A DNA stretch of 36,972 nucleotides from Nitrospinaceae bacterium. Lineage in GTDB: Bacteria; Nitrospinota; Nitrospinia; Nitrospinales; Nitrospinaceae. Positions within the stretch are counted from its first letter, which is position 1, and every line of letters starts with the position of its first letter. Below the pieces are notes generated by a model. That model saw only the letters and a program-made list of their open reading frames with translations. It did not search any database and was not told the origin of the DNA. This document shows positions 3,042 to 36,972 of this stretch, piece after piece. Location of the stretch: the NCBI GenBank assembly GCA_965223665.1, contig CBDCXH010000001.1:1-36972 (forward strand), written 5' to 3'. The translations under genes and the position numbers were made by a program.

Positions 3042-3042
3042 T

Positions 3043-3086: not shown

Positions 3087-3209
3087 GAATTTCACCACAC
3101 TTTTGGCGAAAAAATTTGTTGACAGTTGACAAAAATAATATCGGATCAAAAGGGAGTCAATAAATGAAATTTAAAATAAACCTAAGATAAGGCGAATTAG
3201 CGGTGTTTT

Positions 3210-3791
3210 GTGGAATTAATATCACAAGCGGAATATGCAAGGCGGCGTGGAGTGTCTCGTCAACTTGTCAACAGGTTGACAAAACAAGAACGAATTCCAA
3301 CTCATAATGGAAAAATTAATCCAGTTGAAGCTGATCAAGTTTTGGATAGGGAGTTTGATGAAAAGGAATCCAAAAATGGTAGTAGCTCCAGTGAAAATAA
3401 TTTTTATAAGGAAAAAACTAGGCTCGAAAGTTTAAAGGCGGATTTATATGAAATTAAATTGGCAAGTGAAAGGAAGAAGGTTGTTCCCGTTGAAGTTGTG
3501 TTGGGGGAGTTTGAAAAACTTGTTAAAGCAGTTAAGCAAAGATTGGCAGGGATGGGTAAAAAATTATCTCTTTCGGTTGCCCATGAAACAGATCCAAAAA
3601 AAATTAAAGTCATTATTGATGACGCCATTTTAGAAGCATGCAGCGAGTTTAGACAGTATGACGCAAAAACCGGAAAATGCAGGAGTACTAGCCCTAAGAA
3701 GGGGAATCGAAAAGCTAGCCGCAAACATAAGTCCACCCGAAAAAATACAAATAAGCGAGTGGGCAAACAAACATCGGGTTTTGTCAAGTAA
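3210..3791 (+). CDS. terS: Terminase small subunit (Nu1-like)
   Basis: N-terminal wHTH (ISQAEYARRRGVSRQLV), coiled coil, position between cos and terL. Confidence 0.85.
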   Translation: MELISQAEYARRRGVSRQLVNRLTKQERIPTHNGKINPVEADQVLDREFDEKESKNGSSSSENNFYKEKTRLESLKADLYEIKLASERKKVVPVEVVLGEFEKLVKAVKQRLAGMGKKLSLSVAHETDPKKIKVIIDDAILEACSEFRQYDAKTGKCRSTSPKKGNRKASRKHKSTRKNTNKRVGKQTSGFVK

Positions 3792-5587: not shown

Positions 5588-5747
5588 GGCGGCAATTTTA
5601 TCAGGTCAATCTTATAGCTTAGGTAACAGATCTCTTTCAAGGCCGAATTTAAAAGAAGTTCAAGAGCAAATTACAAAACTAGAAAATGAGGAGTCCCGTT
5701 TAAAAGGTGGCGGTGGGCTCAAAGTTAGAAGGATTGTTCCTTTATGA
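5532..5747 (+). CDS. gpW-like head completion protein
   Basis: LQLYYDAEAAILSGQSYSLGNRSLSR; lies between terL and portal. Confidence 0.8.
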   Translation: MAQTLEQVQARLQLYYDAEAAILSGQSYSLGNRSLSRPNLKEVQEQITKLENEESRLKGGGGLKVRRIVPL

Positions 5748-8727: not shown

Positions 8728-8782
8728 TTCTTTTTTAGTTTTTCAAAAATATATGTTCAACCTCATATAAGGAAAAATCGTT

Positions 8783-9190
8783 ATGACAACGTTAGCAAAA
8801 AATACACCTCGGCCTTACGAATTGGGAGATATGAACAATCTTCCCGTTGTGGCCTCAGACATTATTTACGAAGGCGCCGCCGTAGGTATTGATTCCAATG
8901 GGTATGCACGGCCCTTGGTAGCCGGTGATAAGTTTGCCGGATTCTCAACCGAACATGTGGACAATTCCTCAGGTAACAACGGGGATAAAACTGTTCGCGT
9001 CCGTCGGCGTGGTGCCGTGGAATTGCCAATCGCTGCATTAGCAATCACCGACAATGGAGCGGCAGTTTATGCGTCCGACGATGACACTTTTACCTTAGTT
9101 TCAACTGCTAATTCCAGAATTGGAACTGTGGTTCGTTGGGAAGAAACCGGCGTTGGTTTAGTTGATTTCGAGGAATACAAAGGCGTTTAG
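8783..9190 (+). CDS. Head decoration/cement protein
   Basis: IIYEGAAVG..GYARPLVAGDKFAG, VYASDDDTF; precedes the capsid gene. Confidence 0.75.
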   Translation: MTTLAKNTPRPYELGDMNNLPVVASDIIYEGAAVGIDSNGYARPLVAGDKFAGFSTEHVDNSSGNNGDKTVRVRRRGAVELPIAALAITDNGAAVYASDDDTFTLVSTANSRIGTVVRWEETGVGLVDFEEYKGV

Positions 9191-9250
9191 TAATAATTAA
9201 TCCAAACTAAGAAACAACAAAGCGAAAGCTTTTTAATAGGAGGTTTTAAA

Positions 9251-10198
9251 ATGAGTGTAAAAAGTTTAGGTACGCGAGACATAATCGGTACTTTCTTTGC
9301 TCGCTTAGAGGCCGATCCGGCATTTGCCATTATTAATGCCCTTGCCTGGTTCAATAGGGACACCGACCAGGAAGTGGAAAAATACAAGTGGTTGGGCCAG
9401 GTTCCAATGATGCGGGAATGGATCGGTGGCCGTAAGGCGAAAGGCTTCAATGATTTTGGGTATGAAATCCAAAACAGAAAATACGAGGCCACTTTGGCGG
9501 TGGCCATTCCTGATATGGAAAGAGATAAAACCGCGCAGATCATGACCCGAATTCAGGAGCTAGCACAGGCTGCTAACTTGAATAAATGGTCTCTGCTAGC
9601 TGAATTAATTAAGCTTGGTGGCTCTAAGCTTTGTTATGACGGTCAATTCTTTTTTGATACGGATCATCAAGAGGGTGATTCCGGCGTTCAAAGTAATTCC
9701 ATTACCTATGATGTTGCTGACCCAGCAATCCCGACCGCAAAAGAAATGCAGCAAGCTATTTTTAACAGCATTTCCCAAATGTTGATGTTTAAAAACGATC
9801 AGGGTGAGCCCATGAATGAATTTGCAAAGTCATTCATGGTAATGGTGCCGATTCTTTATTTTCAGTCTGCCTTAGCTGCGGTAACCGCAACCCAGCTAGA
9901 TCAAGGGGAAACTAATCCTTTATCGAAACTAAAAGAAAACGGATATAACATTGATGTTGCACCGGCTCCACGTTTAGGGGTTGGGGTTGGACCTTGGACA
10001 GATAAGTTCGCAACCTTCCGAACTGATTCACCAATGAAGCCTTTTATCATCCAAGAGGAAAAACCATTATCAATGAAACACCTGGATGAAACTTCCGAAC
10101 ATGCAATTAAGGAGGATGAGGTTTTGTTCACTGTGGATAGTCGAGAAGGTGCGGGCTATGGCCTTTGGCAGTATGCAGTTCAAACCCAATTGAACTAA
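9251..10198 (+). CDS. Major capsid protein, Mu gpT-like
   Basis: YKWLGQVPMMREWIGGR, CYDGQFFFDTDH, AGYGLWQYA; RBS AGGAGG. Confidence 0.92.
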   Translation: MSVKSLGTRDIIGTFFARLEADPAFAIINALAWFNRDTDQEVEKYKWLGQVPMMREWIGGRKAKGFNDFGYEIQNRKYEATLAVAIPDMERDKTAQIMTRIQELAQAANLNKWSLLAELIKLGGSKLCYDGQFFFDTDHQEGDSGVQSNSITYDVADPAIPTAKEMQQAIFNSISQMLMFKNDQGEPMNEFAKSFMVMVPILYFQSALAAVTATQLDQGETNPLSKLKENGYNIDVAPAPRLGVGVGPWTDKFATFRTDSPMKPFIIQEEKPLSMKHLDETSEHAIKEDEVLFTVDSREGAGYGLWQYAVQTQLN

Positions 10199-22846: not shown

Positions 22847-23160
22847 TGCCTGTCCGCAAGATTGAAAGAACCAAAGCAGGAATTATGGTCGATGGCCAGT
22901 CCATCGACTATTCCCTTTTGCCCGGAAGCAACAACACCCAAAAGGCTGCAGCATTACAAATCGGGTTGCAGGCTATCATCGATTACAAAATAGATATTAG
23001 CCAAATTGAAGACGGAGACCCGCGAAAAACTTCGGACCCTAAAAAACTAAAAGAGTTTTATGAGGGGGACAAAATAGTTTTTCGCTCCGATACCGTCACC
23101 GTGACCTGGAACACCGAAAGAAACGACTTTGATATTGACATCAACCCCATAAAAGAATAA
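22846..23160 (+). CDS. Hypothetical protein
   Basis: 104 aa, TAATG-coupled on both sides. Confidence 0.65.
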   Translation: MPVRKIERTKAGIMVDGQSIDYSLLPGSNNTQKAAALQIGLQAIIDYKIDISQIEDGDPRKTSDPKKLKEFYEGDKIVFRSDTVTVTWNTERNDFDIDINPIKE

Positions 23161-25859
23161 TGGCTTTCACCCTAAATCAGATCTTTGCTTTTTTAACGCA
23201 GGATTTAACCGATGTCACAAACGGTATTACAAATACACCTGTCGTTTCCCTAGTAGGAAGTGATTATGAATTAGTATGTGAACAGGGGGACCGCGCCCGG
23301 TTTTTAGTTTTCGATGCCGTAGCCAAGGCGGGGGACAACCATGTGGTCATTGGGTATTACACCCGGGTCAATTCCGGTCACACCGGCGATTCGGATATCA
23401 TCAATATAATTGATTCCGGTGGAAGTTTAATTTTAGAACTGCGCGTGATTCATTCTACGGGCGATGTCCAGGTCATCGATTCTAGGGCTGCAGTCAAAGA
23501 CACCATCACCAACCCATTCACCCTTGGGCAAAAACACCGCTTAAAAATTTATTTCGAAAATGCCAACAGCGGCGCCTTTAAAATGGAAGTCGATGGCACC
23601 GAGGTTTCTAATATTACCGCCTGTGATTTCAAAACCGGGAATAATACCGTCGATTATTTAGAACTTAAAACTTCCGGCGGGGGTAAAACTCAGAGGTTTT
23701 CTAAGTGGGTTTGGTACAGCGACGCCACCGACATTACCAACGGGCCCGCGGGGGACATCGATGTGTTGATGTACCAAAAAACCGATGGCGGCACCCAGGA
23801 TCAGGGCGACGCGTTTGACGTGGGCGATTGGGGCAAGGCTTCACAAGCACCGTTCACCACAGGCGCGGGAAACCGAGGGGAATACACGGGGGATCCAAGA
23901 TCGGGTGAAATGATCACCAACAGCGGAACGCGGTCCGGTCCAAGTGGCGATTCCAACGCAAGTGGCACCAACGTCCTGGGTTGTAAAATCATTGGCGATT
24001 TTTCTGCAGGAACCGGCGGCGCTACAAGCTTTTTTATGCGTTATGGAAACGATGTGGACGCCCTCACGGAAGTTGCAGTCACAGTTAATGCCACCAATAC
24101 GATTCTAATGGAAGTGTCGGAATCAGCCAGTGTGGTGCCAACCCTTTCCCAATATTTCCAATTGGGCGGTCGTGTATCCGGACCGGCGGATCTCAGAATC
24201 GAAAACATGGCCGCTTATTTGTTAGTGGAACCGTCTAGTGGTGTGACGGTCACACCCGGACCGGCGGCGGCAAAAGGCGCAGTGGTTGATCCCACCACGG
24301 TGTTGGGTGGCATAACTATTAATGCAGGGAATTCCAGTGCAAGTTCGTTAGTTGTGGATCCTACGGTTCAATTAGGCGGAATTACAATCACCGCCAACCC
24401 GGCCGCAACTCGCGCACTAAATTTCGACCCGAATGTTATTTTGGGAGGAATAACTATTGGGGGAGAAATAGCAGCTGCCAGCGCGGTGGGTGTTGATCCT
24501 CAAGTGGTATTCGGTGGAATCCTGGTCAACCCATCGATCGCGTCGGCCATTGCGGCCGCACTCAACCCACAAGTGGTTTTAGGCGGGATCACTTTAAATG
24601 GTGGATCCGCAGCGGCCATGGCTTTGGGGTTGGATCCGGGTGTGGTGTTGGGTGGAATCACGATTATTTCAACCACCGCAGTTGCCCGGGCATTAGTCAT
24701 CGATCCCAACGTCGATACAAGTTTAGTTTTAAATCCGGATCCGGCCGGAGCTCGCGCATTAATTATTGACCCGAATGTTGTTTTGGGAGGAATCACCATT
24801 GTGGGTGAAATAGCAGCCGCCAGCGCAGCGGGTGTGGATCCACAGGTGGTGTTGGGCGGGATCTTGGTCAACCCATCGATCGCGTCGGCCATTGCGGCCG
24901 CACTCAACCCACAGGTGGTGGTGGGTGGAATTACTTTAAATGGTGGATCCGCAGCGGCCATGGCTTTGGGGTTGGATCCGGGTGTGGTGTTGGGTGGAAT
25001 CACGATCATTTCAACCACCGCAGCTACCCGGGCATTAGTCATCGATCCCAACGTCGACACAAGTTTGGTTTTAAATCCGGATCCGGCCGGAGCTCGCGCA
25101 TTAACTATTGACCCGCAAATTACTTTAGGTGGAATTACAATTAGTGGTGAGGTTGCCAGAGCAAGCGCCTTGGTCGTGGATCCTGGAACGGTGTTAGGGG
25201 GATTAACCATCAATCCGGGATTCGCGGCCGCCATCGCCAATGCTTTGGATGGCAATCCCATTCTGGGCGGCGTGGTCGTCTTTCCAGCATCGGCCAACGC
25301 TAAATCTAATGCGCAAAACCCTGTATTAGAATTAGGCGGGATTACACTGAATGGCGGAATCGCATCGGCCATCGCTCAATCCCTTGATCCGAGTTTAGAA
25401 ACCGGGGGAATCAATATCACGCCGAATCCGGCCGTCCATCGAGCGTTGGTGAATGATCCCGTGATCAGTTTGGGAGGGTTGTCAATTTCACCGAATCCCG
25501 CAGCGGTCCGCGTGTTGGCACTCGACCCGCAAATCGGGTTCGGTGGGATCACTATAAACCCCAACCCGGCAATCGCTCGGACTCTGGTAATGGACCCTAA
25601 TGCCTTCGCCGGAGGAATTTTAATCACTGCCATACCCGCCGGAGCTCGCGCAAACAGTATTGACCCGAATATTATTTTAGGACCGGTGACATTAACTCCG
25701 ACACCGGCGGCTGCCAGGGCATTAGGGATAGATCCAAACACTTTATTGGTTTGGATTTTAGATGTGGATCCACTTCGCACTTACAAGGTTCCCAAAGAGA
25801 TCCGGAAATATGTAATTCCATATGAAAATCGTATTTATAAAGTTGAGGTGAATCAATGA
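23160..25859 (+). CDS. Repetitive fibre protein: beta-rich N-terminal domain plus about 25 ~19-20-aa (DPxVxLGGITI) repeats
   Basis: Repeats are visible in the translation; short C-terminal anchor-like segment RTYKVP..R.YVIP.ENR. Confidence 0.75.
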   Translation: MAFTLNQIFAFLTQDLTDVTNGITNTPVVSLVGSDYELVCEQGDRARFLVFDAVAKAGDNHVVIGYYTRVNSGHTGDSDIINIIDSGGSLILELRVIHSTGDVQVIDSRAAVKDTITNPFTLGQKHRLKIYFENANSGAFKMEVDGTEVSNITACDFKTGNNTVDYLELKTSGGGKTQRFSKWVWYSDATDITNGPAGDIDVLMYQKTDGGTQDQGDAFDVGDWGKASQAPFTTGAGNRGEYTGDPRSGEMITNSGTRSGPSGDSNASGTNVLGCKIIGDFSAGTGGATSFFMRYGNDVDALTEVAVTVNATNTILMEVSESASVVPTLSQYFQLGGRVSGPADLRIENMAAYLLVEPSSGVTVTPGPAAAKGAVVDPTTVLGGITINAGNSSASSLVVDPTVQLGGITITANPAATRALNFDPNVILGGITIGGEIAAASAVGVDPQVVFGGILVNPSIASAIAAALNPQVVLGGITLNGGSAAAMALGLDPGVVLGGITIISTTAVARALVIDPNVDTSLVLNPDPAGARALIIDPNVVLGGITIVGEIAAASAAGVDPQVVLGGILVNPSIASAIAAALNPQVVVGGITLNGGSAAAMALGLDPGVVLGGITIISTTAATRALVIDPNVDTSLVLNPDPAGARALTIDPQITLGGITISGEVARASALVVDPGTVLGGLTINPGFAAAIANALDGNPILGGVVVFPASANAKSNAQNPVLELGGITLNGGIASAIAQSLDPSLETGGINITPNPAVHRALVNDPVISLGGLSISPNPAAVRVLALDPQIGFGGITINPNPAIARTLVMDPNAFAGGILITAIPAGARANSIDPNIILGPVTLTPTPAAARALGIDPNTLLVWILDVDPLRTYKVPKEIRKYVIPYENRIYKVEVNQ
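24409..25115 (+). repeat. 342-bp (114-aa) internal tandem duplication
   Basis: gtggatccgcagcggccatgg at 24601 and 24943; ctcgcgca..gacccg at about 24409, 24751 and 25093. Confidence 0.9.
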
Positions 25860-26167
25860 CTACAACTGGTTTTTTCCAAGATAAAACCCGTGGCCCCACA
25901 ATTTTTAAGGATCCCGATTCCACGCTGGATTATACGTTCGATTGGAACGATTGGCTGGATGATGGGCAAACCATCTTAAGTGCCAACGCCACACCGGAGC
26001 CAAACGGTGTCACCAAAGATCAACCGGAGCAAATTTCAAACGGTTTGGTTACGGTCCGGGTGAGCGGTGGACTTGTCGGAAACGTGCACGGCCTTACTTG
26101 TAGAATTACGACCAATAATGGTCAAGTGGATGAACGCACCATTTACTTTGAAATCATCGAGCGATAA
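25856..26167 (+). CDS. Fibre-tail adaptor-like protein
   Basis: KDPDSTLDYTFDW..WL and V.VSGG..G....TC.ITT..G..DERT motifs. Confidence 0.75.
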   Translation: MTTTGFFQDKTRGPTIFKDPDSTLDYTFDWNDWLDDGQTILSANATPEPNGVTKDQPEQISNGLVTVRVSGGLVGNVHGLTCRITTNNGQVDERTIYFEIIER

Positions 26168-27523
26168 ATGACTTATTGGGTGGCAAATGGCGGATCCGTT
26201 GCGCCGGGTCCCGGTGGAGGTGAGGTCAACGACCTGGATAACCTTGGTGTGGGTCATGGTTGGTACTCGCACAAAGACGGCCTCATCATGTACCTTAAAT
26301 CGTTATTGGCCGGGACTAACATCAATATTGATGTTCTGACCAATGAACTCCGGATCAATGCGATTTCACCGTTCGCCCATATCTACAATGTAATGGATTA
26401 CGGCGCCGTTGGCGACGGCGTGGCCGATGATCGTGGGGCCATTCAAGCGGCGATCGACGCGGCCGTGGCGGATCCAAAGGGTGGTAAAGTTTACATGCCA
26501 CCTGGGAAATATAAGATCGTCGGGCTTCCCACGGCCACAGAAATCTGGGAAGGCAAAACGCTGGAAAACGGAATCCACATTCCGGATTATAGAAACACCA
26601 TCACCACCACCGAACCTCGTGTCCAATTATTAGGCGCCGGTCCGGGACTCACCCATTTAATTCCGGTAAGAAGTAACACTGCCAACGCAATGTTCACCGT
26701 CCGTTGTGAATTGGCTTATGCAGAGGTGGGCGGTTTTTCTATTAACGGTGAGATCCCCAACACCAACACCACCGACCACGTGATTGGCCTGGCCGTAGTT
26801 CCCAACCATGTCAATAGCCCCACCCAGGTAGCCCGTTACTCCTACGGGTTTTACCACAGCATAAAAATGGAGCGATGTTCCGAGGGAATCTTAATGATGG
26901 GGGGATGGGACGGAGTTTCAGGCGATCGCGGCCAGCATTATTGGTGCACGTTTATGAACATCATCATGCGCCGTGGACGTCGAGGCATTTACCTAGCTGA
27001 TAAAATTAGCGGCGCATCCATTGTTAACAGTAATTTATTTATTCAGTGCCAGGTACAGCACAGTAATGCCGCTTATTATATCGAGGGTGGCGACACCAAC
27101 ACCTTTGTTCATTGCACTGCGGACAATATTCAGTTCGGCACCTTCCCGCTCGCCACACCAACGGGAACTTACATTCTTAGAACCCCACCGGTAAACACGC
27201 AATTTGGCAATGAGCAAAACCGCTTTTATTCCTGTCCTAATGAAGACAGCACCCGGAACGCCTGGATTGACGGCCGCGGAACAGAAATTTACGGGTACAC
27301 CTGGGAGTCTAGCAAGAACGATTTCTTTTGCGATGATATGTCGATATGGACCAGCCATTGGTTCAAGCCGGTGGGTTGGACTGCAAGCGAACGCGATTTC
27401 TTATGGCCTAATGGTGCACCGTTTGGGGGGTTGACCTTTTACAACACAACCGACGGCCGGTTGGAAACCTGGGATGGTTCCGCGAACTGGAAATCCGGAA
27501 ACACCATTGTGCACACACCTTAA
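26168..27523 (+). CDS. Tailspike/depolymerase, pectate-lyase-like beta-helix
   Basis: NVMDYGAVGDGVADDRGAIQAAIDAA..GGKVYMPPGKY, followed by Asn-rich beta-helix-like repeats. Confidence 0.85.
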   Translation: MTYWVANGGSVAPGPGGGEVNDLDNLGVGHGWYSHKDGLIMYLKSLLAGTNINIDVLTNELRINAISPFAHIYNVMDYGAVGDGVADDRGAIQAAIDAAVADPKGGKVYMPPGKYKIVGLPTATEIWEGKTLENGIHIPDYRNTITTTEPRVQLLGAGPGLTHLIPVRSNTANAMFTVRCELAYAEVGGFSINGEIPNTNTTDHVIGLAVVPNHVNSPTQVARYSYGFYHSIKMERCSEGILMMGGWDGVSGDRGQHYWCTFMNIIMRRGRRGIYLADKISGASIVNSNLFIQCQVQHSNAAYYIEGGDTNTFVHCTADNIQFGTFPLATPTGTYILRTPPVNTQFGNEQNRFYSCPNEDSTRNAWIDGRGTEIYGYTWESSKNDFFCDDMSIWTSHWFKPVGWTASERDFLWPNGAPFGGLTFYNTTDGRLETWDGSANWKSGNTIVHTP

Positions 27524-27540
27524 TTTGGAAAGGGAATTAT

Positions 27541-27804
27541 GTGGCGAATTCTAAAAACTCTAGCTCTGGTAATGGTAATGGCCTGGCGATATCTGGGCGA
27601 TTGGTTGCACAGTGTCTTGTCTTGGCGATAGTGGGGATCCTCACCTGGGCGGTGGTGAGTGTCAATGAACTCCAAGTGGAACATTCCAAACTAGATACCC
27701 GTGTTTCTGAATTTCATAAGAGGTATTACATCGACAACCAAAGACATCAATTTAGGCATGATCAATTGAATCGAAAAGTCGATGACCTATGGAATAGACG
27801 GTAA
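27541..27804 (+). CDS. Small single-TM plus coiled-coil protein, holin-like
   Basis: TM segment LVAQCLVLAIVGILTWAVVSV; last gene of the late operon. Confidence 0.5.
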   Translation: MANSKNSSSGNGNGLAISGRLVAQCLVLAIVGILTWAVVSVNELQVEHSKLDTRVSEFHKRYYIDNQRHQFRHDQLNRKVDDLWNRR

Positions 27805-27830
27805 TCATAGGCAAATTGAAGGTAATGAAT

Positions 27831-28550
27831 CTAACCTTTTTCTTCTTTTTTTTCGTCTGCAATTTTAATAATCTCGTTTAGGTTTTGTTGTCTTTCTTCC
27901 CTGTGGACATACCATTCTTTAAAAAGAAACTCTAAAAGTTGAATTAATTTTTCGGCTTCCCCGGGTTCTACATTAATAATTAGATCTACATCTTTTTCCA
28001 TGTGAGCACCAATATTTCCTATATTCCGGACGGCATCAATGGCTTGCCACGTGGTGGAATCGATCCGGTCTTTTAAAGCGTCGATTTCTTGTTTTAAGGT
28101 GTACTTATCAGTTATTTCCCAAAAATCTCTTATCATACCTTGTAGTGCCCGACGGCATAACGTGGCTGCAGCCTTGGGGCTTTTATCTAAAATGCTACAG
28201 GCTTCGTAATAGTCTTCTCTAATTTGCTCAGGAACACAAGCAGGTTGAGGTTTTGATTTAGAATCAGGACGAAGCAACCAATGATTGGAGGTTACAATTA
28301 TCGAACCTCTACCGCCACCTTGACGGTCCACCCAAACCAGTGAGGATTCTAATACTATTTCTCTGCACTTTTTATTGGGGCAAACTATCGCTTTGTTTGC
28401 AATATACATTTGTTTTTCAAAGCTACTATATTCAGATTCTTTAATTACAGTCCTAACGTAGGTTTCAATTTCCTCGGTTATGGTTGCATGGCCACCACAA
28501 AAAGGACACTCCCACGGATAACTTTTTTTTGGATCTAATATTTTTGTCAT
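27831..28550 (-). CDS. DUF4145 (HEPN-like) protein with N-terminal Zn-ribbon
   Basis: CPFC..CPNKKC; DYYEA......SPKAAATLCRRALQ; RNIGNIGAH. Confidence 0.85.
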   Translation of the reverse strand: MTKILDPKKSYPWECPFCGGHATITEEIETYVRTVIKESEYSSFEKQMYIANKAIVCPNKKCREIVLESSLVWVDRQGGGRGSIIVTSNHWLLRPDSKSKPQPACVPEQIREDYYEACSILDKSPKAAATLCRRALQGMIRDFWEITDKYTLKQEIDALKDRIDSTTWQAIDAVRNIGNIGAHMEKDVDLIINVEPGEAEKLIQLLEFLFKEWYVHREERQQNLNEIIKIADEKKEEKG

Positions 28551-28594
28551 CTACCCAACTCCCAATGCGGCTAAAACTTCTTGGTGATCCATTC
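28551..28594 (-). repeat. Displaced copy of the lipoprotein gene's 3' end (MDHQEVLAALGVG*)
   Basis: 28558-28594 is identical (37 bp) to 29288-29324; the last codons differ only synonymously. Confidence 0.95.
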
Positions 28595-28595
28595 T

Positions 28596-29276
28596 TTAAT
28601 TATTTTCTTCTTTTGGTTTGCTGGGATTCGTCACCCCTAACAAAGATCGGAATTCAGCCTCTATTTTATCCATTAACCCCGGAACAACCTCAGTCAAGGC
28701 ATTTAAAGCCTCTCGCCAAGCTTCGCCTGTTTTGTCAGAGGGTCTACCGCTTAATTCTTCGGTAGTTCGCCAAAATCTTAATCTATCAGCAGGTTCAATG
28801 GCCTGAAATATAAGTTCTTCAATTTCCCTACATAGTTTCTCAGGAAAATAAATTTTTTTTGTATTATAAAACTTTTTAAAAACAAAATAATTTTTATTAA
28901 AATCCGTATTTTCTTCATTTCCTGTTTGGATGAAACTATTTGTTGAGTTCAATAAATTTACTAAAAATGAGTATAATTCGCCAATAATTTCTAACCTTTT
29001 TTCCACAAGCAAAGTTTTGCTTTGTTTGTATTCTAAACTATTTATCTGAAGGTCATGGCTGGCTTTTTGGATTTCAAGTTTACTTTCTGTTTCTAACTCA
29101 TTTTTAAATGCTTCTTTTTCCTTATCAAGCTCAGACTTATATTTTGCTAAATTTTTCGATAATGAGTTTTCAATTATTTGTTTTGCAAAAAATTTAGCCG
29201 CACCAATTATTGCTCCGACAACAACTGAAATACCACCTAATGTTTTTATTACACTCCAAATATCCGCCAAATCCAT
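28596..29276 (-). CDS. N-terminally membrane-anchored coiled-coil protein, unknown function
   Basis: TM segment LGGISVVVGAIIGAA, then a K/E-rich coil; very AT-rich. Confidence 0.8.
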   Translation of the reverse strand: MDLADIWSVIKTLGGISVVVGAIIGAAKFFAKQIIENSLSKNLAKYKSELDKEKEAFKNELETESKLEIQKASHDLQINSLEYKQSKTLLVEKRLEIIGELYSFLVNLLNSTNSFIQTGNEENTDFNKNYFVFKKFYNTKKIYFPEKLCREIEELIFQAIEPADRLRFWRTTEELSGRPSDKTGEAWREALNALTEVVPGLMDKIEAEFRSLLGVTNPSKPKEENN

Positions 29277-29280
29277 ACTC

Positions 29281-29841
29281 TCATCCCACTCCCAATGCGG
29301 CTAAAACTTCTTGGTGATCCATTCCTTTTTTGTTTTCCATTAATTCAGTGCCGGTTTGAATTTCCCAGCAACCCGGGCACGATTGTATTTTTTTTAAAAT
29401 TCCTTTATCCATGACCATCGCTTGATCGGGTTGGTACAATAAAATTTCGTGAGTGTTATCCCATACAAAACGTTTTGGGGGACCCATCGCATAAAACAGT
29501 TTATACACGTCATCCCCAGGTTGAATCTTTTTTTGATCCAGTCGACTTAATGTTTCCGGATCCCATTTTTTTTTCTTTTGCAGCGTATTCCATCGAAACG
29601 CATAGGCAATATTATAGTTCTTTTGGTTCACCTCATATTTTTTCACTTCTGGGAATTGCTTATAAAAATCAAACCAGTTTTGCGGAGTTAGTTGATTGTC
29701 AAGGTATGCAGCAATTGGGACACCATTATATTGATTAACCTCCGATGCACTTTTAAAGCCAACCGGTTTGTAATAATATTCCGTGCCCGCGCAACCAATC
29801 AGGAATAATAAGGGTATTGAAATAAAAAGAAATCGATTCAT
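29281..29841 (-). CDS. Lipoprotein B (paralog of 32088-32675)
   Basis: Start MNRFLF at 29841 (RBS GAGGAG); lipobox LIGC; CxxC near the C-terminus. Confidence 0.85.
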   Translation of the reverse strand: MNRFLFISIPLLFLIGCAGTEYYYKPVGFKSASEVNQYNGVPIAAYLDNQLTPQNWFDFYKQFPEVKKYEVNQKNYNIAYAFRWNTLQKKKKWDPETLSRLDQKKIQPGDDVYKLFYAMGPPKRFVWDNTHEILLYQPDQAMVMDKGILKKIQSCPGCWEIQTGTELMENKKGMDHQEVLAALGVG

Positions 29842-29860
29842 GGAATACTCCTCTTTATGA

Positions 29861-29923
29861 TGGATTTCTTTAAACCTTATTAAATTCCGCTTAGGCAATC
29901 AAGAAAATTTTGACATATCGAAT
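29861..29923 (-). promoter_or_regulatory. Promoter repeat R5
   Basis: Minus strand TTGATT(29902-29897)-17 bp-TAAGGT(29879-29874). Confidence 0.8.
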
Positions 29924-30084
29924 ATTTTTATAGTAAAAGGGACTATCGATTAAGCGAAAAAACTTTATTGTTTCGTCAATGACCGGAAAATCAAACTTGT
30001 GGGGGTTGCCGGACACCAATAAATAACAGGAGCTAGGGCATTCTTAATTTTCACTAGAGATACTGAACTGGGAGGATATTTATT

Positions 30085-30762
30085 ATGAAAGCTACCACGT
30101 TAGCAGTTATGTCAGGCGGGTTGGATTCAACAGTGCTAGGCCAAAAACTTAAGTCGGAAGGTGTTCCATTTCGAGCGATATATTTCGACATTGGTTACCT
30201 TCCGCGGGTAGCAGAAAGAAACGCTGCTAAATATGCTTGTTTCCAATTAGATACGCCGTTAGAAATCGTCAATCTAAGTGGAATGTTTGAAATGGTTTCA
30301 GGTTTCGTTCCAAATGAAATGCTTGGTTTGGATGAGGCTGATAAAGGACAGCCAAAATCGGAAGTACACATTCCCGGTGATCCAGATTATGTAAGTGGGT
30401 TTCATTGTATAACTTCCCTTGCTTCATACTATGCCTTACTAGCGGAAATTGAAACTATCAGTGTTGGGTTGATTCGTAATCAAGTAGATTACAATGATCG
30501 TTTAAAAAACTTCATCGCAGAGTTTCCAGCTTGCGCAGGCCACTTAAACCCAAGTCGTAATTTTCGACTGGAAGCACCATTTGCTGGAATGTATAAATCG
30601 GAAGTTGTAGAACTCGGCGTAAAGCTTGGTGTAAATTTAGAGCGTACTTGGAGTTGCTATAATGGTGGTAGGCAACATTGTGGTGTTTGCCCCGGATGTA
30701 ATGGCCGTAAGCAGGCGTTTCAGGATGCTAAAGTCGATGATCTCACAAGTTATGACGAATGA
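30085..30762 (+). CDS. Divergent QueC-family (PP-loop, Zn-binding) protein
   Basis: SGGLDS PP-loop; K.EVVELG..LGV..E.TWSCY...HCGVCPGC..R; RBS GGAGG. Confidence 0.88.
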   Translation: MKATTLAVMSGGLDSTVLGQKLKSEGVPFRAIYFDIGYLPRVAERNAAKYACFQLDTPLEIVNLSGMFEMVSGFVPNEMLGLDEADKGQPKSEVHIPGDPDYVSGFHCITSLASYYALLAEIETISVGLIRNQVDYNDRLKNFIAEFPACAGHLNPSRNFRLEAPFAGMYKSEVVELGVKLGVNLERTWSCYNGGRQHCGVCPGCNGRKQAFQDAKVDDLTSYDE

Positions 30763-30818
30763 AAATTGCGTCATTCTGAAGATATCGATCATTAACTTTT
30801 ATCCATAAGTTAATATTC

Positions 30819-30852
30819 AGGCAATCAAGAAAAATTTGGCGTATTAAATCAA
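30819..30852 (-). repeat. Truncated promoter repeat R4 (-35 half only)
   Basis: aggcaatcaagaaaaatttggcgtattaaatcaa; similarity stops before the -10 element. Confidence 0.85.
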
Positions 30853-30888
30853 GTGGTCCGGAGGGTATTGTTTTAACAGTTGGTTGTA
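30844..30888 (-). pseudogene. 3' remnant of a homolog of ORF 34776-34997
   Basis: Translates YNQLLKQYPPDHLI* versus YGKLLKQSRQGKLI*, in the same register to the repeat. Confidence 0.7.
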
Positions 30889-30934
30889 TTATGGAAAAAA
30901 CATGAATTAAATTTATTTATAGGTTTAACTTCCA

Positions 30935-31366
30935 TTAGTTTGTACAAGGAAAAGCTTCCGAAATTGCCTTAATAACTAACGCTGCGGCGTCCAAATGAAG
31001 TTTTTCTGGGTGATCATTTAACCATTTTTTTACAATTTTTTCCATTTGGCCAGCGGTGTAACCTAAGGGGAGATCAATACAAATATTTTTAAAACCTTCC
31101 TTACTTTGTTTACCTGGGTTAAAAGAGGAAAATTCGTGTGTATGAGTAAGGTTTCCTTTAAAATCAGCCATAAACTTAATAGAAGAAGTAATCCCAAAAA
31201 TATACCCTGTGCAGTAAGCACTATTCTGAAACTTTATGGGTTCACGGGTGTCAGTGCATATATTTTGCAACGTATTTCCAGAAAAACCATTCCCACTTTC
31301 ACCCAAATCAGCAAAAGAAAAGAATACAATAAGCCCTAATACAGCTATTGACGTTGATGGTTTCAT
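30935..31366 (-). CDS. Rap1a/Tai-family immunity-like exported protein
   Basis: Signal peptide from ATG 31366; GN.L...C, C.GYI.G, IC..P......Q...IV.KWL..HPE.LH..AA.LV..A...AFPC. Confidence 0.85.
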   Translation of the reverse strand: MKPSTSIAVLGLIVFFSFADLGESGNGFSGNTLQNICTDTREPIKFQNSAYCTGYIFGITSSIKFMADFKGNLTHTHEFSSFNPGKQSKEGFKNICIDLPLGYTAGQMEKIVKKWLNDHPEKLHLDAAALVIKAISEAFPCTN

Positions 31367-31393
31367 GATTTCTTCTCGCAAAAATTTTTTAAA

Positions 31394-31452
31394 GATTTTC
31401 CCCAACCTAATCCATTCAGCTAAGGCAATCAAAAAAAATTGGGAACATTAAA
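31394..31452 (-). promoter_or_regulatory. Promoter repeat R3
   Basis: TTGATT(31432-31427)-17 bp-TAGGTT(31409-31404). Confidence 0.8.
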
Positions 31453-31596
31453 GGTTTTGCTCGGGGTCATCGGCGAGTTTAAAAGCATACGGTTTCCCGC
31501 CACCGTGGCACAGCCAGTCTTAATCCAACCCACGCAGGCATGTGGGCTTTGAGGAGCAGTCTTTCCAGTCGGGTGCCAAACGTTGTCTTTCTCCCT

Positions 31597-32064
31597 TCAA
31601 TCAAGGTTTGCTAATTTGTTCATCTTATCTATTAGGGGTTGCACAGGTTTCAAACCTTTTCCACTCCCTAACATTATAGATTGTGCTTGAATCTGAGCAC
31701 TGAGCGCGTTTAGTTTAGCCGTGACTTCCATAGAATGTACTTGTTTAGATAATGCCTCCTCTGCTTTTTCCTGGGCATCGGCAAACCTTTTCATTTCTTT
31801 TCTTTGAGCTTCTAGTTCTTCCCTTTGATAGACCAACTCTTGTCTTTGAAGTAAGATTGCGAAAATTACCCCAGCAAATGCAAAGCCTGAGAAAAGAGAG
31901 TTCAATCCTCCAAACATATCACCCCAAACACCAGCATTTTCTGCTTTACCTATAAAAGTAACTACTAGGCACCAATAAATAAGCCATACAGCGAAAACTC
32001 CTAAAATAAACAACAGGAAATGTTTCATTGAAAAAACTGTCTCACTTGATTTCGTGTTGCTCAT
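31597..32064 (-). CDS. Two-TM plus coiled-coil protein resembling the N-terminal module of 'putative abortive infection' proteins
   Basis: GVWGDMFGGLNSLFSGFAFAGVIFAILLQRQEL..QREEL motif; likely start ATG 32064 (RBS GAGGAG). Confidence 0.7.
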   Translation of the reverse strand: MSNTKSSETVFSMKHFLLFILGVFAVWLIYWCLVVTFIGKAENAGVWGDMFGGLNSLFSGFAFAGVIFAILLQRQELVYQREELEAQRKEMKRFADAQEKAEEALSKQVHSMEVTAKLNALSAQIQAQSIMLGSGKGLKPVQPLIDKMNKLANLD

Positions 32065-32087
32065 TATATTCTCCTCTTGTCCCATAT

Positions 32088-32675
32088 TCACCCCACTCCC
32101 AAAGCGGTTAATACTTCCGGTTCTGCCATGCCGCGCCTATCACCCATCATTTCGTCACCCGAAGGAAGTTGCCAACACCCCTTACAGGATCGAATTTCTT
32201 TTAGGACTCCATGGTCCATAATCAATGCTTTGTCCGGTTCATAGATTAGAATTTCATGATCATTATTCCAAATAATTCGCCTTGGGGGGCCGAGTGCATA
32301 AATAGCTTTGAAGTGATTATCACCTGGTTGAGTTTTATTTTTATCCAACCGTTGAACTGTGGTTTTGTCCCATTGTTGTTTTCGTTTTAAAGTGGTCCAT
32401 CGCCAGGCGTAGGCGGTGTAATAAGGATGATACTCCATAGTGTTTCCAAATTGATTGGCCTGTTGGATATCGTTCCAATACTCCGGAAACTCTTTATAAA
32501 ACGTCCGCCATTCTTCCCGGGATAATTGTAGGGCTAAATAATGAGTGGTCGGGTATTGAATGTAAGGCTTTACTTCATCAATCGTATTAAACCCTGCCGG
32601 TTTAAAATTCCGCTCTAGGTTGACACAACCAAAAATGAAAAATAATATTGTTATCAAAGAAACTATTCGCTTCAT
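32088..32675 (-). CDS. Lipoprotein A
   Basis: Lipobox IFGC; colinear with lipoprotein B, ending EVLTALGVG*. Confidence 0.85.
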   Translation of the reverse strand: MKRIVSLITILFFIFGCVNLERNFKPAGFNTIDEVKPYIQYPTTHYLALQLSREEWRTFYKEFPEYWNDIQQANQFGNTMEYHPYYTAYAWRWTTLKRKQQWDKTTVQRLDKNKTQPGDNHFKAIYALGPPRRIIWNNDHEILIYEPDKALIMDHGVLKEIRSCKGCWQLPSGDEMMGDRRGMAEPEVLTALGVG

Positions 32676-32689
32676 TTTTAACTCACTTT

Positions 32690-32986
32690 TTATAATTCAA
32701 TCCTTTTTAAAACTTCGACAGGTCCATCTAATTGAAACCCTTCGGCTTCAATTTCGTCCGGAGTCAACTCTATATAATCCACACAATCGGACCAAGGGGA
32801 AGGGGGGATTTCTGCTCCAACATTTTTTGGGTTTGACGGTATCCAATGACTATAATCTTCTGCAAATGTTTGAGCAGTTTTTTCGCTAGCTGCTCTTATG
32901 AAGAGTCCAATAGCCCCAGATTTACAGTGTCCCCATCTTTCATCGTTTTTTTTTGATTGAATAGGAGTTACTTTAAAAATTTTCAT
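32690..32986 (-). CDS. Hypothetical protein (98 aa)
   Basis: Likely start MKIFKV at 32986 with RBS GGAG. Confidence 0.65.
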   Translation of the reverse strand: MKIFKVTPIQSKKNDERWGHCKSGAIGLFIRAASEKTAQTFAEDYSHWIPSNPKNVGAEIPPSPWSDCVDYIELTPDEIEAEGFQLDGPVEVLKRIEL

Positions 32987-33005
32987 AATACTTCTCCAAT
33001 GAGAT

Positions 33006-33281
33006 TCACCACTTTTTTTCTTTGGGGATTTGGGATTCGCGCATCCCACCATTTCTGCTTATTCTGGGTTCTCGCAAATATTGAGCTAGTTCCTGTAAAA
33101 TTATATTTTGTTTCTGAACATTTTCATTAGTCCGCTTTACGTACACTTTGATTCGGTACACAAACCAGGGCAAAAAGATCGCCAACACAAATAAAACGAT
33201 GGCGACAATCCAAACTAAAAGCAATCCGCTTCCCGCACCTAATACATCTAACGAGTCATCAAACTTATAAGGAGAATTCAT
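33006..33281 (-). CDS. Small single-TM protein
   Basis: Hydrophobic LLLVWIVAIVLFVLAIFLPWFV; first gene after R2. Confidence 0.7.
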   Translation of the reverse strand: MNSPYKFDDSLDVLGAGSGLLLVWIVAIVLFVLAIFLPWFVYRIKVYVKRTNENVQKQNIILQELAQYLREPRISRNGGMRESQIPKEKKW

Positions 33282-33297
33282 AAGTCACCTGTTTTTA

Positions 33298-33364
33298 TGG
33301 ATTTTCCCTCAACCCTAATCCATTCCGTTTAGGCAATCAAGAAAAATTTGGCATGTTAAATTAG
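33298..33364 (-). promoter_or_regulatory. Promoter repeat R2
   Basis: TTGATT(33340-33335)-17 bp-TAGGGT(33317-33312); nearly identical to R1. Confidence 0.85.
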
Positions 33365-33434
33365 TTTTCCGCTTCGCAAAGGTTTTCGATTATCTTGTTT
33401 TCCCTGAACGGCGCCTATCGGCCATAAGCGGACA

Positions 33435-34643
33435 TTAACCCGCATATATTTTTGACATCTGATTTTTCAAACGTTGTAGCAACTCATCATAAGTCATTAC
33501 TTCAACATTTTTTAAAGATGTCCTTAATATTCTAAAATCCGCCTCTTTCTCAGGTGTGTCTAGCTGGTCTGTATGTCCCATAATTACAACAGCCCTTGGT
33601 CTAACAACAGAAACTACCACTCCTCGTTCTCTCGCAACATCTTCTGCAAGATTTGACGCTTTTCTTTCAGCATTGAATAAATATTTTTCTGCTTGCATAA
33701 GTGCCTTAACAGCGTCAGAGCTCCAATAGAAATTACCTCTGTCAGTCGTTGCGGAGAGCAACTTCGTTACTGGCTTTTTGATTTCAAATAGGTCTAGGTA
33801 TCCCTGCGAATCTACTAAACCAAAATCCACTTTACGCTGACTGCCTAAAACCACATTCAATTCATGAATTACGGAAATATATTTCGAGTCGATCAGATAT
33901 AAATGTTTTTGAAGAAAGTCACCCCATTTCGCTTCTGTCTCGTTCTTTACGAGCATCCTTTTATAAGTGTTGATTGTTTCTTTTAGAGCTACTTCGTCGA
34001 CTTTTAGCTTTGCAGCACCAAACAGTTTTCTTCTTCGAGCAGCGGAAGAGTATTTACCAGAAAGCAAACTCTCCATAAAATCGAGGTATTTTTCAACATC
34101 ATCTGCTTCTAAGTGTTCAATGATGCTGGGATCAAGATTACGAGTCACACGAGCCGCGCGTTGACGCCCAGGAAGCTCAGCTTTATGAAATTTTGAAGGA
34201 AACTCCTGATGGAAAAATTCATCTACAGCTAAACTTCTTTCCCTTTTATTTTCGTTTGATAGCTCTGTTAGTCGACTTTTGAGCTGTTTTAGTCCGTCAT
34301 ATCCCAGAATAAATGTGAGCTTTCCACCATATGAACGGAGTGTGCTAGTACCATTTTTTACAACGCGAAAGACTTTAACTTCCTTACCTTGAAATTTTTT
34401 TACGAAATAGTAGCTCAGACCGGCTTTAAAATAGCCAAGCTCAGAAATCTCGGGGGGAATTCTTTTAAATCCGATAATTTCTACTTTATTTGTAATGAAT
34501 TCATGGCGAGGATAGAAATCAATCTTTTCATTTTCAGCATCTATTGTAAATGTAAGATGACGCTCTCCTGGTTTCTCAGTGTCGATTATATAAACTGATT
34601 CTGTACCATCATCATGTATTTCTTTATCTGTTTCTAATGGCAT
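33435..34643 (-). CDS. sduA: Shedu (DUF4263) anti-phage nuclease
   Basis: E..W..FL, VDF..VD..G..DLFEIKKP, W.S...KA..Q..KY, RPRAVVIMG, FR..R..L..VEVMTYDELL.R. Confidence 0.9.
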   Translation of the reverse strand: MPLETDKEIHDDGTESVYIIDTEKPGERHLTFTIDAENEKIDFYPRHEFITNKVEIIGFKRIPPEISELGYFKAGLSYYFVKKFQGKEVKVFRVVKNGTSTLRSYGGKLTFILGYDGLKQLKSRLTELSNENKRERSLAVDEFFHQEFPSKFHKAELPGRQRAARVTRNLDPSIIEHLEADDVEKYLDFMESLLSGKYSSAARRRKLFGAAKLKVDEVALKETINTYKRMLVKNETEAKWGDFLQKHLYLIDSKYISVIHELNVVLGSQRKVDFGLVDSQGYLDLFEIKKPVTKLLSATTDRGNFYWSSDAVKALMQAEKYLFNAERKASNLAEDVARERGVVVSVVRPRAVVIMGHTDQLDTPEKEADFRILRTSLKNVEVMTYDELLQRLKNQMSKIYAG

Positions 34644-34720
34644 TGTGGAATTCCGATCCTATTAATCCAATACTCTCTTCAGTGTCCGCTTTGGGTCGAA
34701 AGCCGTCACATTTTTTTTCG

Positions 34721-34784
34721 TGGATTCCCCAACCCTAATCTATTCCGTTTAGGCAATCAAGAAATATTTGGCATATTAAATCAA
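34721..34784 (-). promoter_or_regulatory. Promoter repeat R1
   Basis: TTGATT(34760-34755)-17 bp-TAGGGT(34737-34732); overlaps the stop of ORF 34776-34997. Confidence 0.85.
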
Positions 34785-34997
34785 CTTACCTTGGCGGGAC
34801 TGTTTCAGTAATTTCCCATAAAGCCCGGAGTTAAAGAATTTCGTTTGGCTTTTTGAGTTTCGAAGTAATGGGCATGGCTCGTATTCCATCATTACCTCTT
34901 CCACGCTTTCTTTAGTTTTAATATCAATAACTTTTGATTCTGGGGGTGGTGCCGGTTTTACGATCGCGGTATTGTTTTTTTTGGCCTTGCGCGTCAA
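34776..34997 (-). CDS. 73-aa hypothetical protein coupled to the repressor
   Basis: TTG start overlaps the repressor's TGA; its C-terminus is conserved at protein level in two displaced remnants. Confidence 0.65.
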   Translation of the reverse strand: MTRKAKKNNTAIVKPAPPPESKVIDIKTKESVEEVMMEYEPCPLLRNSKSQTKFFNSGLYGKLLKQSRQGKLI

Positions 34998-35449
34998 CCC
35001 TGAGCGAAATTTTGGCTTTTCGCTTTGGCAAGTTCTTCTTTTAGGTGGGCATTTTCCTTCCTCAGTTCTTTTACCTCAACCTTTAAATTTGAAACGTCCT
35101 CTATTAAATCTTTGATCAATTGGCGCATATTCTCCCCCTCTTCAACCTTCGAATTTTCAATAGCATTCGATTCTATCTTTTGAGACTGGTTTTCTTCAAG
35201 AGGGTTATAGGGATATTTTCCTAATTTTTCCCTAATAATGTTTGGGTTGTCAAATAATTCACTGACAGAACATTTGAATATAATTGATAATTTTTTCAGT
35301 TTTTTCGCATCAAGTTTTTTAGGGGGATTATTCTCCCATGTGTTTATCGTTTGATAAGAAACTCCAATAAAATCAGCTAGTTGAGTCTGTGACAACCTCA
35401 TGTATTTTCTTATTAACTGGACGTTTTCTTTAAAGTTTTCTATATTCAC
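34994..35449 (-). CDS. XRE-family HTH repressor (CI-like) with C-terminal coiled coil
   Basis: IRKYMRLSQTQLADFIGVSYQTINTWEN; divergent from the early operon; no S24 peptidase domain seen. Confidence 0.9.
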   Translation of the reverse strand: MNIENFKENVQLIRKYMRLSQTQLADFIGVSYQTINTWENNPPKKLDAKKLKKLSIIFKCSVSELFDNPNIIREKLGKYPYNPLEENQSQKIESNAIENSKVEEGENMRQLIKDLIEDVSNLKVEVKELRKENAHLKEELAKAKSQNFAQG

Positions 35450-35482
35450 TTGAAAATTTTATATAGTTTAATTGATATTTTG

Positions 35483-35513
35483 CTTGACAATTTTTATCAA
35501 GTAATACTATATT
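35483..35513 (+). promoter_or_regulatory. Rightward early promoter overlapped by an operator-like palindrome
   Basis: TTGACA(35484)-18 bp-TATATT; dyad CTTGAcAA-N3-TTaTCAAG at 35483-35501. Confidence 0.65.
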
Positions 35514-35724
35514 CATAATTACCACCCAGATTCGGTGGTTGTGGCCTAGACGCAATTCAGGCCTACGAAATAAATGCTAGTTCATAAACTTTAACTTCAG
35601 GGGAACTATGCACCGTAACATAAAATTCCAATTCGATCAATTTTGCCCGAGGTTGGGGACCCCTGAAGCCCTAAACTTGGGTATTTTTTTGACCTCGGCC
35701 AACCCCGAAGTCAAAAGTCTTTGC

Positions 35725-36497: not shown

Positions 36498-36685
36498 ACT
36501 TTTTTAACTGGATGGATTATTGGGGGATGAATGTTTTGTCCACGTTTATTCAAGAGCATCCTTACCTTTTGATGTGGGGATCCATTGCCATATCCACCGC
36601 GGCCGCCTCAATGTGTATTTTAGAAATTTCAGGGGACTTGGAAGATGTTTCAACAAAAAAATACAAAAACAACCAAAAGCAGTAA
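36494..36685 (+). CDS. Small membrane protein
   Basis: 63 aa with a hydrophobic segment; translationally coupled. Confidence 0.5.
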   Translation: MNFFNWMDYWGMNVLSTFIQEHPYLLMWGSIAISTAAASMCILEISGDLEDVSTKKYKNNQKQ

Positions 36686-36972
36686 ACCGAAAAAGCGTTC
36701 CATCTATTACCGCTTGGTGGACGCGGAACAAATTAAATTGTCGGAATCCGGCAAAGCTGTTCAGGTGCGGGTCAATTTGGTGAAACCGGACGGAAGCCGG
36801 CGGACTTGGAACTTATATTTTCCGGAGAAAAGAATCTCGATCAAACCGGATGGAGTTTTCGTTCCGCAATGGATGTTGGAATTAAAAAACAAAGAGCTTG
36901 TGGAAAATGCGATGAAGTTTTTTAAGATCGATTCGGAAGATAAATTGCGGGAACAAAATCGATTTGAAGAAA
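36645..36972 (+). CDS. 3'-truncated hypothetical protein
   Basis: ATG at 36645, open to the window end (MFQQKN..SESGKAVQV..FVPQWML..). Confidence 0.6.
   Translation, partial: MFQQKNTKTTKSSKPKKRSIYYRLVDAEQIKLSESGKAVQVRVNLVKPDGSRRTWNLYFPEKRISIKPDGVFVPQWMLELKNKELVENAMKFFKIDSEDKLREQNRFEE

Follow-up and report, generated by a model that had tools for sequence, protein, structure and literature searches.

The morons of lambdoid phages such as HK97 and HK022 are independent transcription units inserted between phage genes, and rexAB of lambda is an accessory locus that lies downstream of the prophage repressor. Integrons hold their cargo in cassette arrays, and integration into the 3′ end of a gene can come with restoration of that end by attP. 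Here we are concerned with a locus that recalls all of these. It lies on a contig of 36,972 bp (CBDCXH010000001.1; the whole contig is the window in what follows) from the 4.35-Mb genome of a Nitrospinaceae bacterium, and it consists of a run of accessory genes, predicted defence genes among them, downstream of the gene for a CI-like repressor. Five copies of a short repeat with the form of a promoter (R1 to R5, counted from the repressor) are spaced through this run, and R2 and R4 are preceded by what appear to be displaced ends of a predicted open reading frame (ORF) of 73 amino acids (aa), which itself ends at R1.

Four published accounts, drawn on here in extract, bear on such a locus. The region between cI and N is a described hotspot, in which bstA of phage BTP1 sits (PMC8585504). 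Hotspots of antiviral systems are described in P2-like phages and P4-like satellites (PMC9122126); the title and the first part of the abstract of that paper speak neither of repeated promoters nor of gene-end relics. Reuse of promoters has been described in terms of putative mobile promoters (PMC3575422), and relaxed recombination at diverged homology has been described between temperate phages and defective prophages (PMC3945230).

Candidate gene ends before R2 and R4

The 73-aa ORF (34776..34997, minus strand) opens with a TTG that overlaps the repressor stop codon (TTGA), and its predicted product ends in ...YGKLLKQSRQGKLI; the TAA that follows (34776-34778) abuts R1 (34732..34775, minus strand). 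In register with that stop, R2 (33312..33355, minus strand) is preceded by ...RKPLRSGKLI (33359-33388, minus strand, TAA at 33356-33358), and R4 (30800..30843, minus strand) is preceded by YNQLLKQYPPDHLI (30847-30888, minus strand, TAA at 30844-30846), with a stop codon directly before the Y. The lengths that resemble the 73-aa tail are 6-9 codons at R2 and 14 codons at R4. These gene-tail scars are probably real. That they are scars from the joining of accessory cassettes, that is, from ordinary phage mosaicism, is the explanation we prefer, and we give it about an even chance of being right.

We scored each stretch by its best suffix (BLOSUM62) anchored at the stop codon, using as background 47,059 random stop-terminated frames of the genome. 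The score is 26 at R2 (P=6e-5) and 27 at R4 (P=4e-5); with the final two residues left out, since they fall within the DNA repeat, the P values become 1.3e-3 and 7.7e-4, respectively. Composition-preserving shuffles give P=0.003/0.009 for R2 and P=2e-4/2e-5 for R4. By the same anchored measure R3 has P=0.34; at R5 the register holds no stop. When 11 promoter copies of the genome (described below) are scored at five offsets each, high scores appear only for R2 and R4, and only at offset 0; no tail relic precedes R3, R5, or any of five chromosomal copies, all of which score 7 or less.

The resemblance is one of protein more than of DNA. Nucleotide identity to the 73-aa tail is 55% for R4 (14 codons) and 56% for R2 (9 codons), and the in-frame scores (27 and 26) compare with 14/8 for R4 and 5/-5 for R2 in the other two frames. 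A simulation of random substitutions reaches the observed score with P=0.009 for R4 and P=0.0007 for R2, and the identical residues use different codons in 4/7 cases (R4) and 4/6 cases (R2). The initial annotation of this DNA, made by inspection, had claimed that peptide ends stand before R1, R2 and R4 in the same register, and that their conservation is clearer in protein than in DNA. Coordinates, TAA register and anchored tests agree with the first claim, and the low nucleotide identity, the better score of the correct frame and the synonymous codon differences agree with the second. The observation is thus confirmed, because the anchored, shuffle, frame and codon tests all favour the register of R2 and R4.

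Several results weigh against gene relics, and together they make the case for a simpler account, in which the DNA repeat merely reaches 9-12 nucleotides (nt) further upstream, the end of the 73-aa ORF meets it by accident, and whatever likeness is left comes from composition and luck. R1, R2 and R4 have almost the same DNA over the final two codons and the stop, and since these positions lie inside the repeat they carry no independent weight. The stretches are very short, and the window lengths were picked after seeing the data. An unanchored local alignment of their DNA is non-significant, and when the R2 spacer is aligned globally, as DNA, with the R1 tail, 57 of 1000 shuffles do as well. 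A tail profile, built from the tails of the phage and of a decayed relative on contig C3 (below), places the R4 relic at rank 1747 among 271,690 six-frame fragments (3.9 bits) and does not include the R2 relic among the 5,079 fragments listed, while an out-of-frame chance match within a chromosomal gene reaches 17.5 bits. When the C3 tail by itself is the reference, the two relics have P=0.71 and 0.16. What the simpler account does not easily explain is that the signal persists once the two shared residues are taken away and under shuffling, that it depends on reading frame, that two such sites among four candidates are unlikely by luck, and that R3, R5 and the chromosomal copies show nothing like it. 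We take it as a serious rival, but an unlikely one. By the test against a homologue profile, which the initial annotation had named as a possible refutation, the result is weak; by the register-specific score it is good.

A different sort of difficulty lies in the contrast between the promoter parts of the repeats, which are 85-92% identical within the phage, and the tails, which are ~50% identical; a history that joins the two needs selection or gene conversion. The high identity of the promoter parts, and the fact that the relics resemble the tail of their own phage and not the C3 tail, would suit local duplication, in which the phage's own tail-plus-promoter is copied in place (by slipped or unequal recombination, for example) and then drifts, with no import. 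But neutral drift to ~50% should erase the protein likeness in all frames, and here the correct frame stands out, with the different codons for identical residues already mentioned; moreover, identity drops from ~90% to ~50% sharply at the stop codon, unlike what uniform drift would leave. Taken with the frame-specific signal, the drop in identity is therefore more easily explained by divergence between coding alleles than by local duplication. The evidence is modest, and we judge local duplication improbable. We infer import from other phages, as against local duplication, and likewise the order of events.

It could also be that the stretch upstream of the repeat is no scar at all and is kept for a function. 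It might serve as a binding site or upstream promoter element, or as a short leader that is translated and whose termination at the TAA acts on the promoter. An ORF of 29 codons with an ATG does run from the stop codon of the defence gene Shedu into the R2 relic, and the TAA register is kept in 4/5 phage copies. Against this, R3, R5 and the five chromosomal copies have no upstream likeness, and in 6/7 of them the promoter boxes and a gene behind them are retained; the R4 relic, for its part, lacks a start codon, has a stop directly upstream and stands before a degenerate promoter. A functional element is, in our opinion, very improbable.

As we read it, the locus is a stack of cassettes with predicted promoters of their own, or morons, downstream of the CI-like repressor and on the same strand. 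The cassettes are Shedu; a membrane/lipoprotein unit of four genes; the Rap1a-like gene; an orphan promoter that faces a QueC-like gene; and a unit of a lipoprotein gene, a 226-aa ORF and a PD-T7-4-like gene. Each is headed by one sigma-70-like promoter unit of ~45-60 nt, whose ancestral place would be directly behind the stop of the 73-aa ORF, itself presumably co-transcribed with the repressor. The relics would then be ends of other alleles of the 73-aa ORF that remained linked to their promoters as cassette was added to cassette. Related phages and prophage relics within one host would have recombined to make these joints, with one side of the joint homologous or homeologous in the segment of repressor end, ORF and promoter, and the other side illegitimate.

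The predicted promoter unit and its relatives in the genome

The core of the repeat occurs five times in the window (at 34751, 33331, 31423, 30819 and 29893; 0 in 100 shuffles), one more than the four that the initial annotation had counted. R1 has an A/T-rich upstream part, then TTGATT (34755-34760), a spacer of 17 nt and TAGGGT (34732-34737), and R2 has TTGATT at 33335-33340 and TAGGGT at 33312-33317. R3 (31404..31450, minus strand; TTGATT 31427-31432, TAGGTT 31404-31409) has the TAA in register and no tail relic, and R5 (29874..29917, minus strand; TTGATT 29897-29902, TAAGGT 29874-29879) has neither a stop in register nor a tail relic. R4 is an orphan: its TTGATT (30823-30828) is not followed at 17 nt by TAnnnT, no ORF of at least 60 aa lies within 260 nt, and what it faces is the QueC-like gene, convergent with it, at that gene's 3′ end. 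A hairpin, perhaps a two-way terminator, lies across the stop codon of that gene (30762-30800), where orphan R4 and the gene converge.

A profile of the five copies finds five further copies on the chromosome (E of 4e-4 or better), and an eleventh, decayed copy is found on contig C3. The chromosomal matches start at model positions 11-18, which correspond to the stop codon that ends the phage ORF or to letters behind it. TTGATT-17 nt-TAnnnT is exact in 10/11 copies, including those with diverged spacers, and in the same 10/11 an ORF of at least 60 aa begins 22-101 nt further on, R4 being the exception for both. The genes that stand behind phage and chromosomal copies are unrelated cargo. In this host, TTGACA/TATAAT and Shine-Dalgarno sequences are enriched upstream of long ORFs. 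From its form and position, then, we read the repeat unit as a putative promoter. A simple sigma-70 scan lists none of the five phage repeats, which counts against that reading. A promoter of Bacteroidetes type (TAnnTTTG) was considered and rejected, that motif being unenriched upstream of the host's long ORFs. No operator motifs common to the repressor's own control region and the repeats were seen.

Between R1 and the start of Shedu lies an element of 21 nt (34683..34703) that resembles repetitive extragenic palindromes (REP-like). It has 20 matches in the genome at up to 4 mismatches, against 1 for a reversed control, and outside the window it lies at C1 ~1.457-1.563 Mb, 2.242 Mb and 3.029-3.032 Mb and at C4:4405, often in inverted pairs between defence genes of chromosomal islands. 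An inverted, diverged copy just after the Shedu stop (33406..33434) aligns with the inverted arm upstream of the chromosomal copy C1a, so that the phage Shedu is bracketed by an inverted pair; in the array these elements flank only Shedu. The element may be a cassette-border mark or an RNA hairpin. With the copy at C1:3031628, which stands before a 332-aa ORF and a TIR-domain ORF, R1 and the element behind it share 90.5% identity over 95 nt; with the copy that precedes a different, chromosomal Shedu they share 81% over 99 nt. The predicted promoter unit is thus not phage-specific, the same unit heading defence genes of the host chromosome.

The 3031628 copy, which is the best chromosomal one, belongs to an island (L015, C1:3025000-3038000) whose positions 2243-8703 hold genes for a PIF1-like helicase, a trypsin-like peptidase and DUF4238, and then the promoter copy with the two ORFs just named. 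The promoter is not found in comparable form in the other collections searched: its 22-nt core has 3, 0 and 4 single matches in public collections, none alike beyond the core, and a 9.2-kb query against 20 other genomes of the family has no match at any promoter repeat.

The module of repressor end, 73-aa ORF and promoter has relatives in the same genome. On contig C3, the repressor end (the last ~45 nt), a decayed copy of the whole 73-aa ORF and a promoter copy are colinear with the phage (z=17.3, 0/1000 shuffles, 121/166 nt identical). Because the order of ORF stop and then promoter is common to the phage and C3, we take this junction to be ancestral. The C3 copy of the ORF has two in-frame stops and frame-breaking indels, so that its conservation could be non-coding, which is a further point against reading the relics as gene ends. 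At C3 5615-7437 a large ORF whose start resembles a signal peptide (460 aa if ATG-started) comes after the module; these stand just behind a P27-like small terminase gene, and there is an integrase on the same contig. The spacer of the chromosomal copy C1c has marginal DNA likeness to C3 (21/500 shuffles).

On the chromosome, at C1 ~2.239 Mb, the 3′ end of a gene for a 150-aa repressor matches that of the phage repressor at 87% identity over 69 nt. The gene has the same TTGA overlap, followed by a homologue of the start of the 73-aa ORF (28 codons, z=9.2) and then directly by AbiJ. A further fragment, of repressor end and ORF start, lies at L017:8283-8317. The island in question (L017, C1:2236000-2249000) holds at 2600-9700 the repressor, the truncated 73-aa homologue, AbiJ, Endonuclease I, a promoter copy, a Shedu with an SduA_N domain, a 242-aa ORF and a gene for a helix-turn-helix (HTH) C5 methylase, with integrases just upstream. 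Cargo at the repressor-downstream site thus differs, in this one comparison, between the phage and a chromosomal relic with AbiJ, Endonuclease I and a different Shedu. In all, the phage and its decayed relatives share segments that are 66-91% identical in the same genome.

Relatives outside this genome, by which import could be judged, are another matter, and their absence from the collections searched does not help the explanation we prefer. The 73-aa ORF belongs to no Pfam or PHROG family, and a word-indexed protein search gave no candidate. The lone HMMER match among 1.84 billion representatives is an 858-aa tandem-repeat protein that matches residues 27-49 sixteen times, and we judge it spurious. 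Six-frame searches of 20 other family genomes and 119 other genomes of the phylum found the ORF in none; in IMG/VR, 33 pattern matches were all unconfirmed, and tblastn against GenBank phages gave no match. Whether the ORF is conserved, on which the initial annotation made its idea depend, has therefore a mixed answer: no homologue outside the genome in the collections searched, and the C3 and C1 relics within it.

Where are the joints? Five relics give five break points: ~45 nt and ~9 nt before the repressor stop, and, within the ORF, codon 28, ~codon 59 (R4) and ~codons 64-67 (R2). The joints scatter, in answer to a question the initial annotation had raised, and this points to homeologous or illegitimate recombination, with no site-specific recombinase needed. 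The form of the locus (intact gene end, insert, old gene end) is what site-specific capture at the 3′ end of the 73-aa gene would give, if an integrase or an integron-like enzyme restored the gene end as at attP/attB. The TAA is in the same register at R1, R2, R3 and R4, and integrases are encoded elsewhere in the genome, beside chromosomal islands and on C3. However, none of the genome's 13 matches to the tyrosine integrase family (PF00589) is on the phage contig (serine recombinases were not searched), the duplicated tails are ~50% identical and not near-identical cores, the relics differ in length, and the C1 and C3 joints are at other positions. We find site-specific capture scarcely credible. 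The initial annotation had proposed that incoming DNA recombined inside the 73-aa gene in a way that mirrors attP-style restoration of 3′ ends. The first part is in keeping with joints in or next to the gene and with coding-like relics; the attP-style mechanism is not supported, and the likeness to attP is one of form and not of mechanism, because the joints scatter and no tyrosine integrase is encoded on the contig. The further proposal of the initial annotation, that the newest cassette lies nearest the repressor, would follow from its model alone. A scan that covered 10 early ORFs only recognised no single-strand-annealing recombinase on the phage contig.

A displaced gene end occurs a second time in the array, and in clearer form. 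The last 60 nt of a lipoprotein-like gene (29281..29841, minus strand; itself a paralogue of the gene at 32088-32675) form copy A (29281-29340) and recur at 28551-28610 (copy B, minus strand), with 49/60 nt identical, the same frame and one internal TAA. The 226-aa ORF (28596..29276, minus strand) lies between the copies and has its last codons inside copy B, and the ATG of the next gene comes directly after the copy B stop. Three different genes of the array each stand directly behind such a lipoprotein end. Cargo in this array tends, it seems, to bring along the tail of the gene that used to precede it, as a carrier of expression signals. The duplicated lipoprotein end therefore supports the general idea behind the inference of the initial annotation.

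With the duplicated-end pattern present twice, in the 73-aa tails and in the lipoprotein end, a more ambitious proposal can be made, namely that the tail-plus-promoter unit is a portable homology handle for cassette capture, integron-like but integrase-free. Cargo would loop out as circles between neighbouring promoter copies, and the circles would re-enter at any copy by a single homologous crossover, duplicating the handle. A handle common to the phage, prophage relics and chromosomal islands would let defence genes move between them, and the array would record its own history, with the newest cassette next to the repressor. We regard this as improbable.

Genes of the block and of the contig

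The contig (C2 in our numbering; G+C content 0.435, against 0.382 for the main chromosome) encodes a large terminase of gpA type, a lambda-type portal, an S49 protease and a small terminase (Pfam/PHROG profiles), and because of these genes we identify it as a lambda-like temperate phage. No terminal overlap was found between its two ends. ORFs run open off both ends (36645-36971 and 2-361), and the one at 2-361 matches phrog_631 from profile position 39 onward.

The accessory block occupies 27831-35449 on the minus strand, except for the QueC-like gene, which is on the opposite strand. Its G+C content (27600-35600) is 0.26-0.43, against 0.48-0.55 in the adjacent structural genes (26000-27600). 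It is headed by the CI-like repressor (34994..35449, minus strand; 151 aa; Pfam HTH_3 8.9e-11, and PHROG transcriptional repressor families). Directly downstream of cI and on the same strand, PADLOC recognises the known defence genes SduA and PD-T7-4. The first, Shedu (33435..34643, minus strand; 402 aa; Pfam SduA_C 6e-31, PADLOC SduA 4.2e-34), has the C-terminal nuclease domain PF14082 at residues 235-389 (6e-31). The second, a DUF4145/PD-T7-4-like gene (27831..28550, minus strand; Pfam DUF4145 1.6e-13, PADLOC PD-T7-4 2.2e-15), is the last of the minus-strand genes.

Behind R2 lie four genes (31597..33281, minus strand) for 91-aa, 120-aa, 195-aa lipoprotein-like and 164-aa membrane/coiled-coil products, with no confident Pfam or PADLOC family for the unit and a terminator-like hairpin downstream of it (31489-31506). 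The 145-nt spacer between the 164-aa ORF and R3 (31452-31596) is G+C-rich, and has no Rfam or tRNA match. Nor did Rfam and tRNA scans of the window give any match. The Rap1a-like gene (30935..31366, minus strand; Pfam Rap1a 1.9e-16) has an uncertain start codon. The QueC-like gene (30085..30762, plus strand; Pfam QueC 8.2e-28, PADLOC QueC) lies between R4 and R5.

We looked for related phages and for variants of the array. With the repressor as query, 129 pattern matches in a collection of genome contigs and 10 in a collection of viral contigs yielded no confirmed relative, and neither did 9 pattern matches of the portal in the viral contigs. A blastn search of 33280-35460 against phages gave no match, and four sequencing runs, all contig sets of one study, showed no array variants. 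One candidate for a Shedu-less phage, a joint of 33434 to 34683 with 21 nt on the shorter side, was rejected, its source contig matching a chromosomal promoter copy.

Elsewhere on the contig, four overlapping copies of an 11-nt-periodic repeat (801-877) lie upstream of and into an ORF with a DnaA N-terminal domain (839-1708), and are possibly iterons of the phage replication origin. An 899-aa ORF (23160-25859) has nested internal repeats of 69 nt and 342 nt at 24299-25751, and is probably a repetitive tail-fibre or collagen-like protein.

Comparison with described systems

If the relics are real, they are datable scars of a temperate phage building a stack of defence and conversion genes. Cargo would then travel with the expression signals of a former neighbour (a promoter with a gene end, or a gene end that carries a ribosome-binding site), one promoter sequence would be a common currency between phage and host defence islands, and there would be a testable route for defence genes such as Shedu between chromosome and phage.

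Integrons and att sites offer the likeness of ordered cassettes beside a fixed platform, with a displaced old gene end behind the insert. Unlike integrons, the contig has no tyrosine recombinase of IntI type, and the repeat is a 5′ unit of promoter form and not a 3′ attC; unlike att-type integration, the repeated ends are not near-identical cores, with 55-56% DNA identity for the tails and 49/60 for the lipoprotein pair. Both readings fail, on tyrosine integrase, repeat position and repeat identity.

In the manner of morons, the accessory genes here have a deviant base composition and lie in the lysogenic-conversion arm, and they may have promoters of their own. Unlike morons, five units stand in a row with one promoter sequence that chromosomal defence islands also use, and two of them carry a relic of the end of an upstream gene. 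Like bstA and rexAB, the defence genes lie directly downstream of cI on the same strand, but bstA and rexAB are described as sharing the promoter of the repressor, while here only the 73-aa ORF is so placed, and every cargo has its own copy of the repeated putative promoter. The chromosomal relic, with AbiJ directly behind the truncated 73-aa ORF, is closer to the bstA arrangement.

Going by the extracts of the other three accounts, the locus resembles the P2/P4 hotspots in that apparently variable defence cargo occupies a fixed place in the genome of a temperate phage. It resembles the putative mobile promoters in that highly similar promoter DNA lies upstream of non-homologous genes, and differs from them as far as those extracts go in that the sharing is between a phage and chromosomal islands of one genome and in that the unit is linked to a REP-like element. 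As in relaxed recombination, a phage and its decayed relatives occur in one genome with scattered joints, known here from sequence and not from an observed exchange.

Morons, repressor-downstream hotspots and relaxed recombination already cover the general phenomena. Current views of phage mosaicism are not overturned by this locus, which adds to them a worked example from a poorly sampled host lineage.

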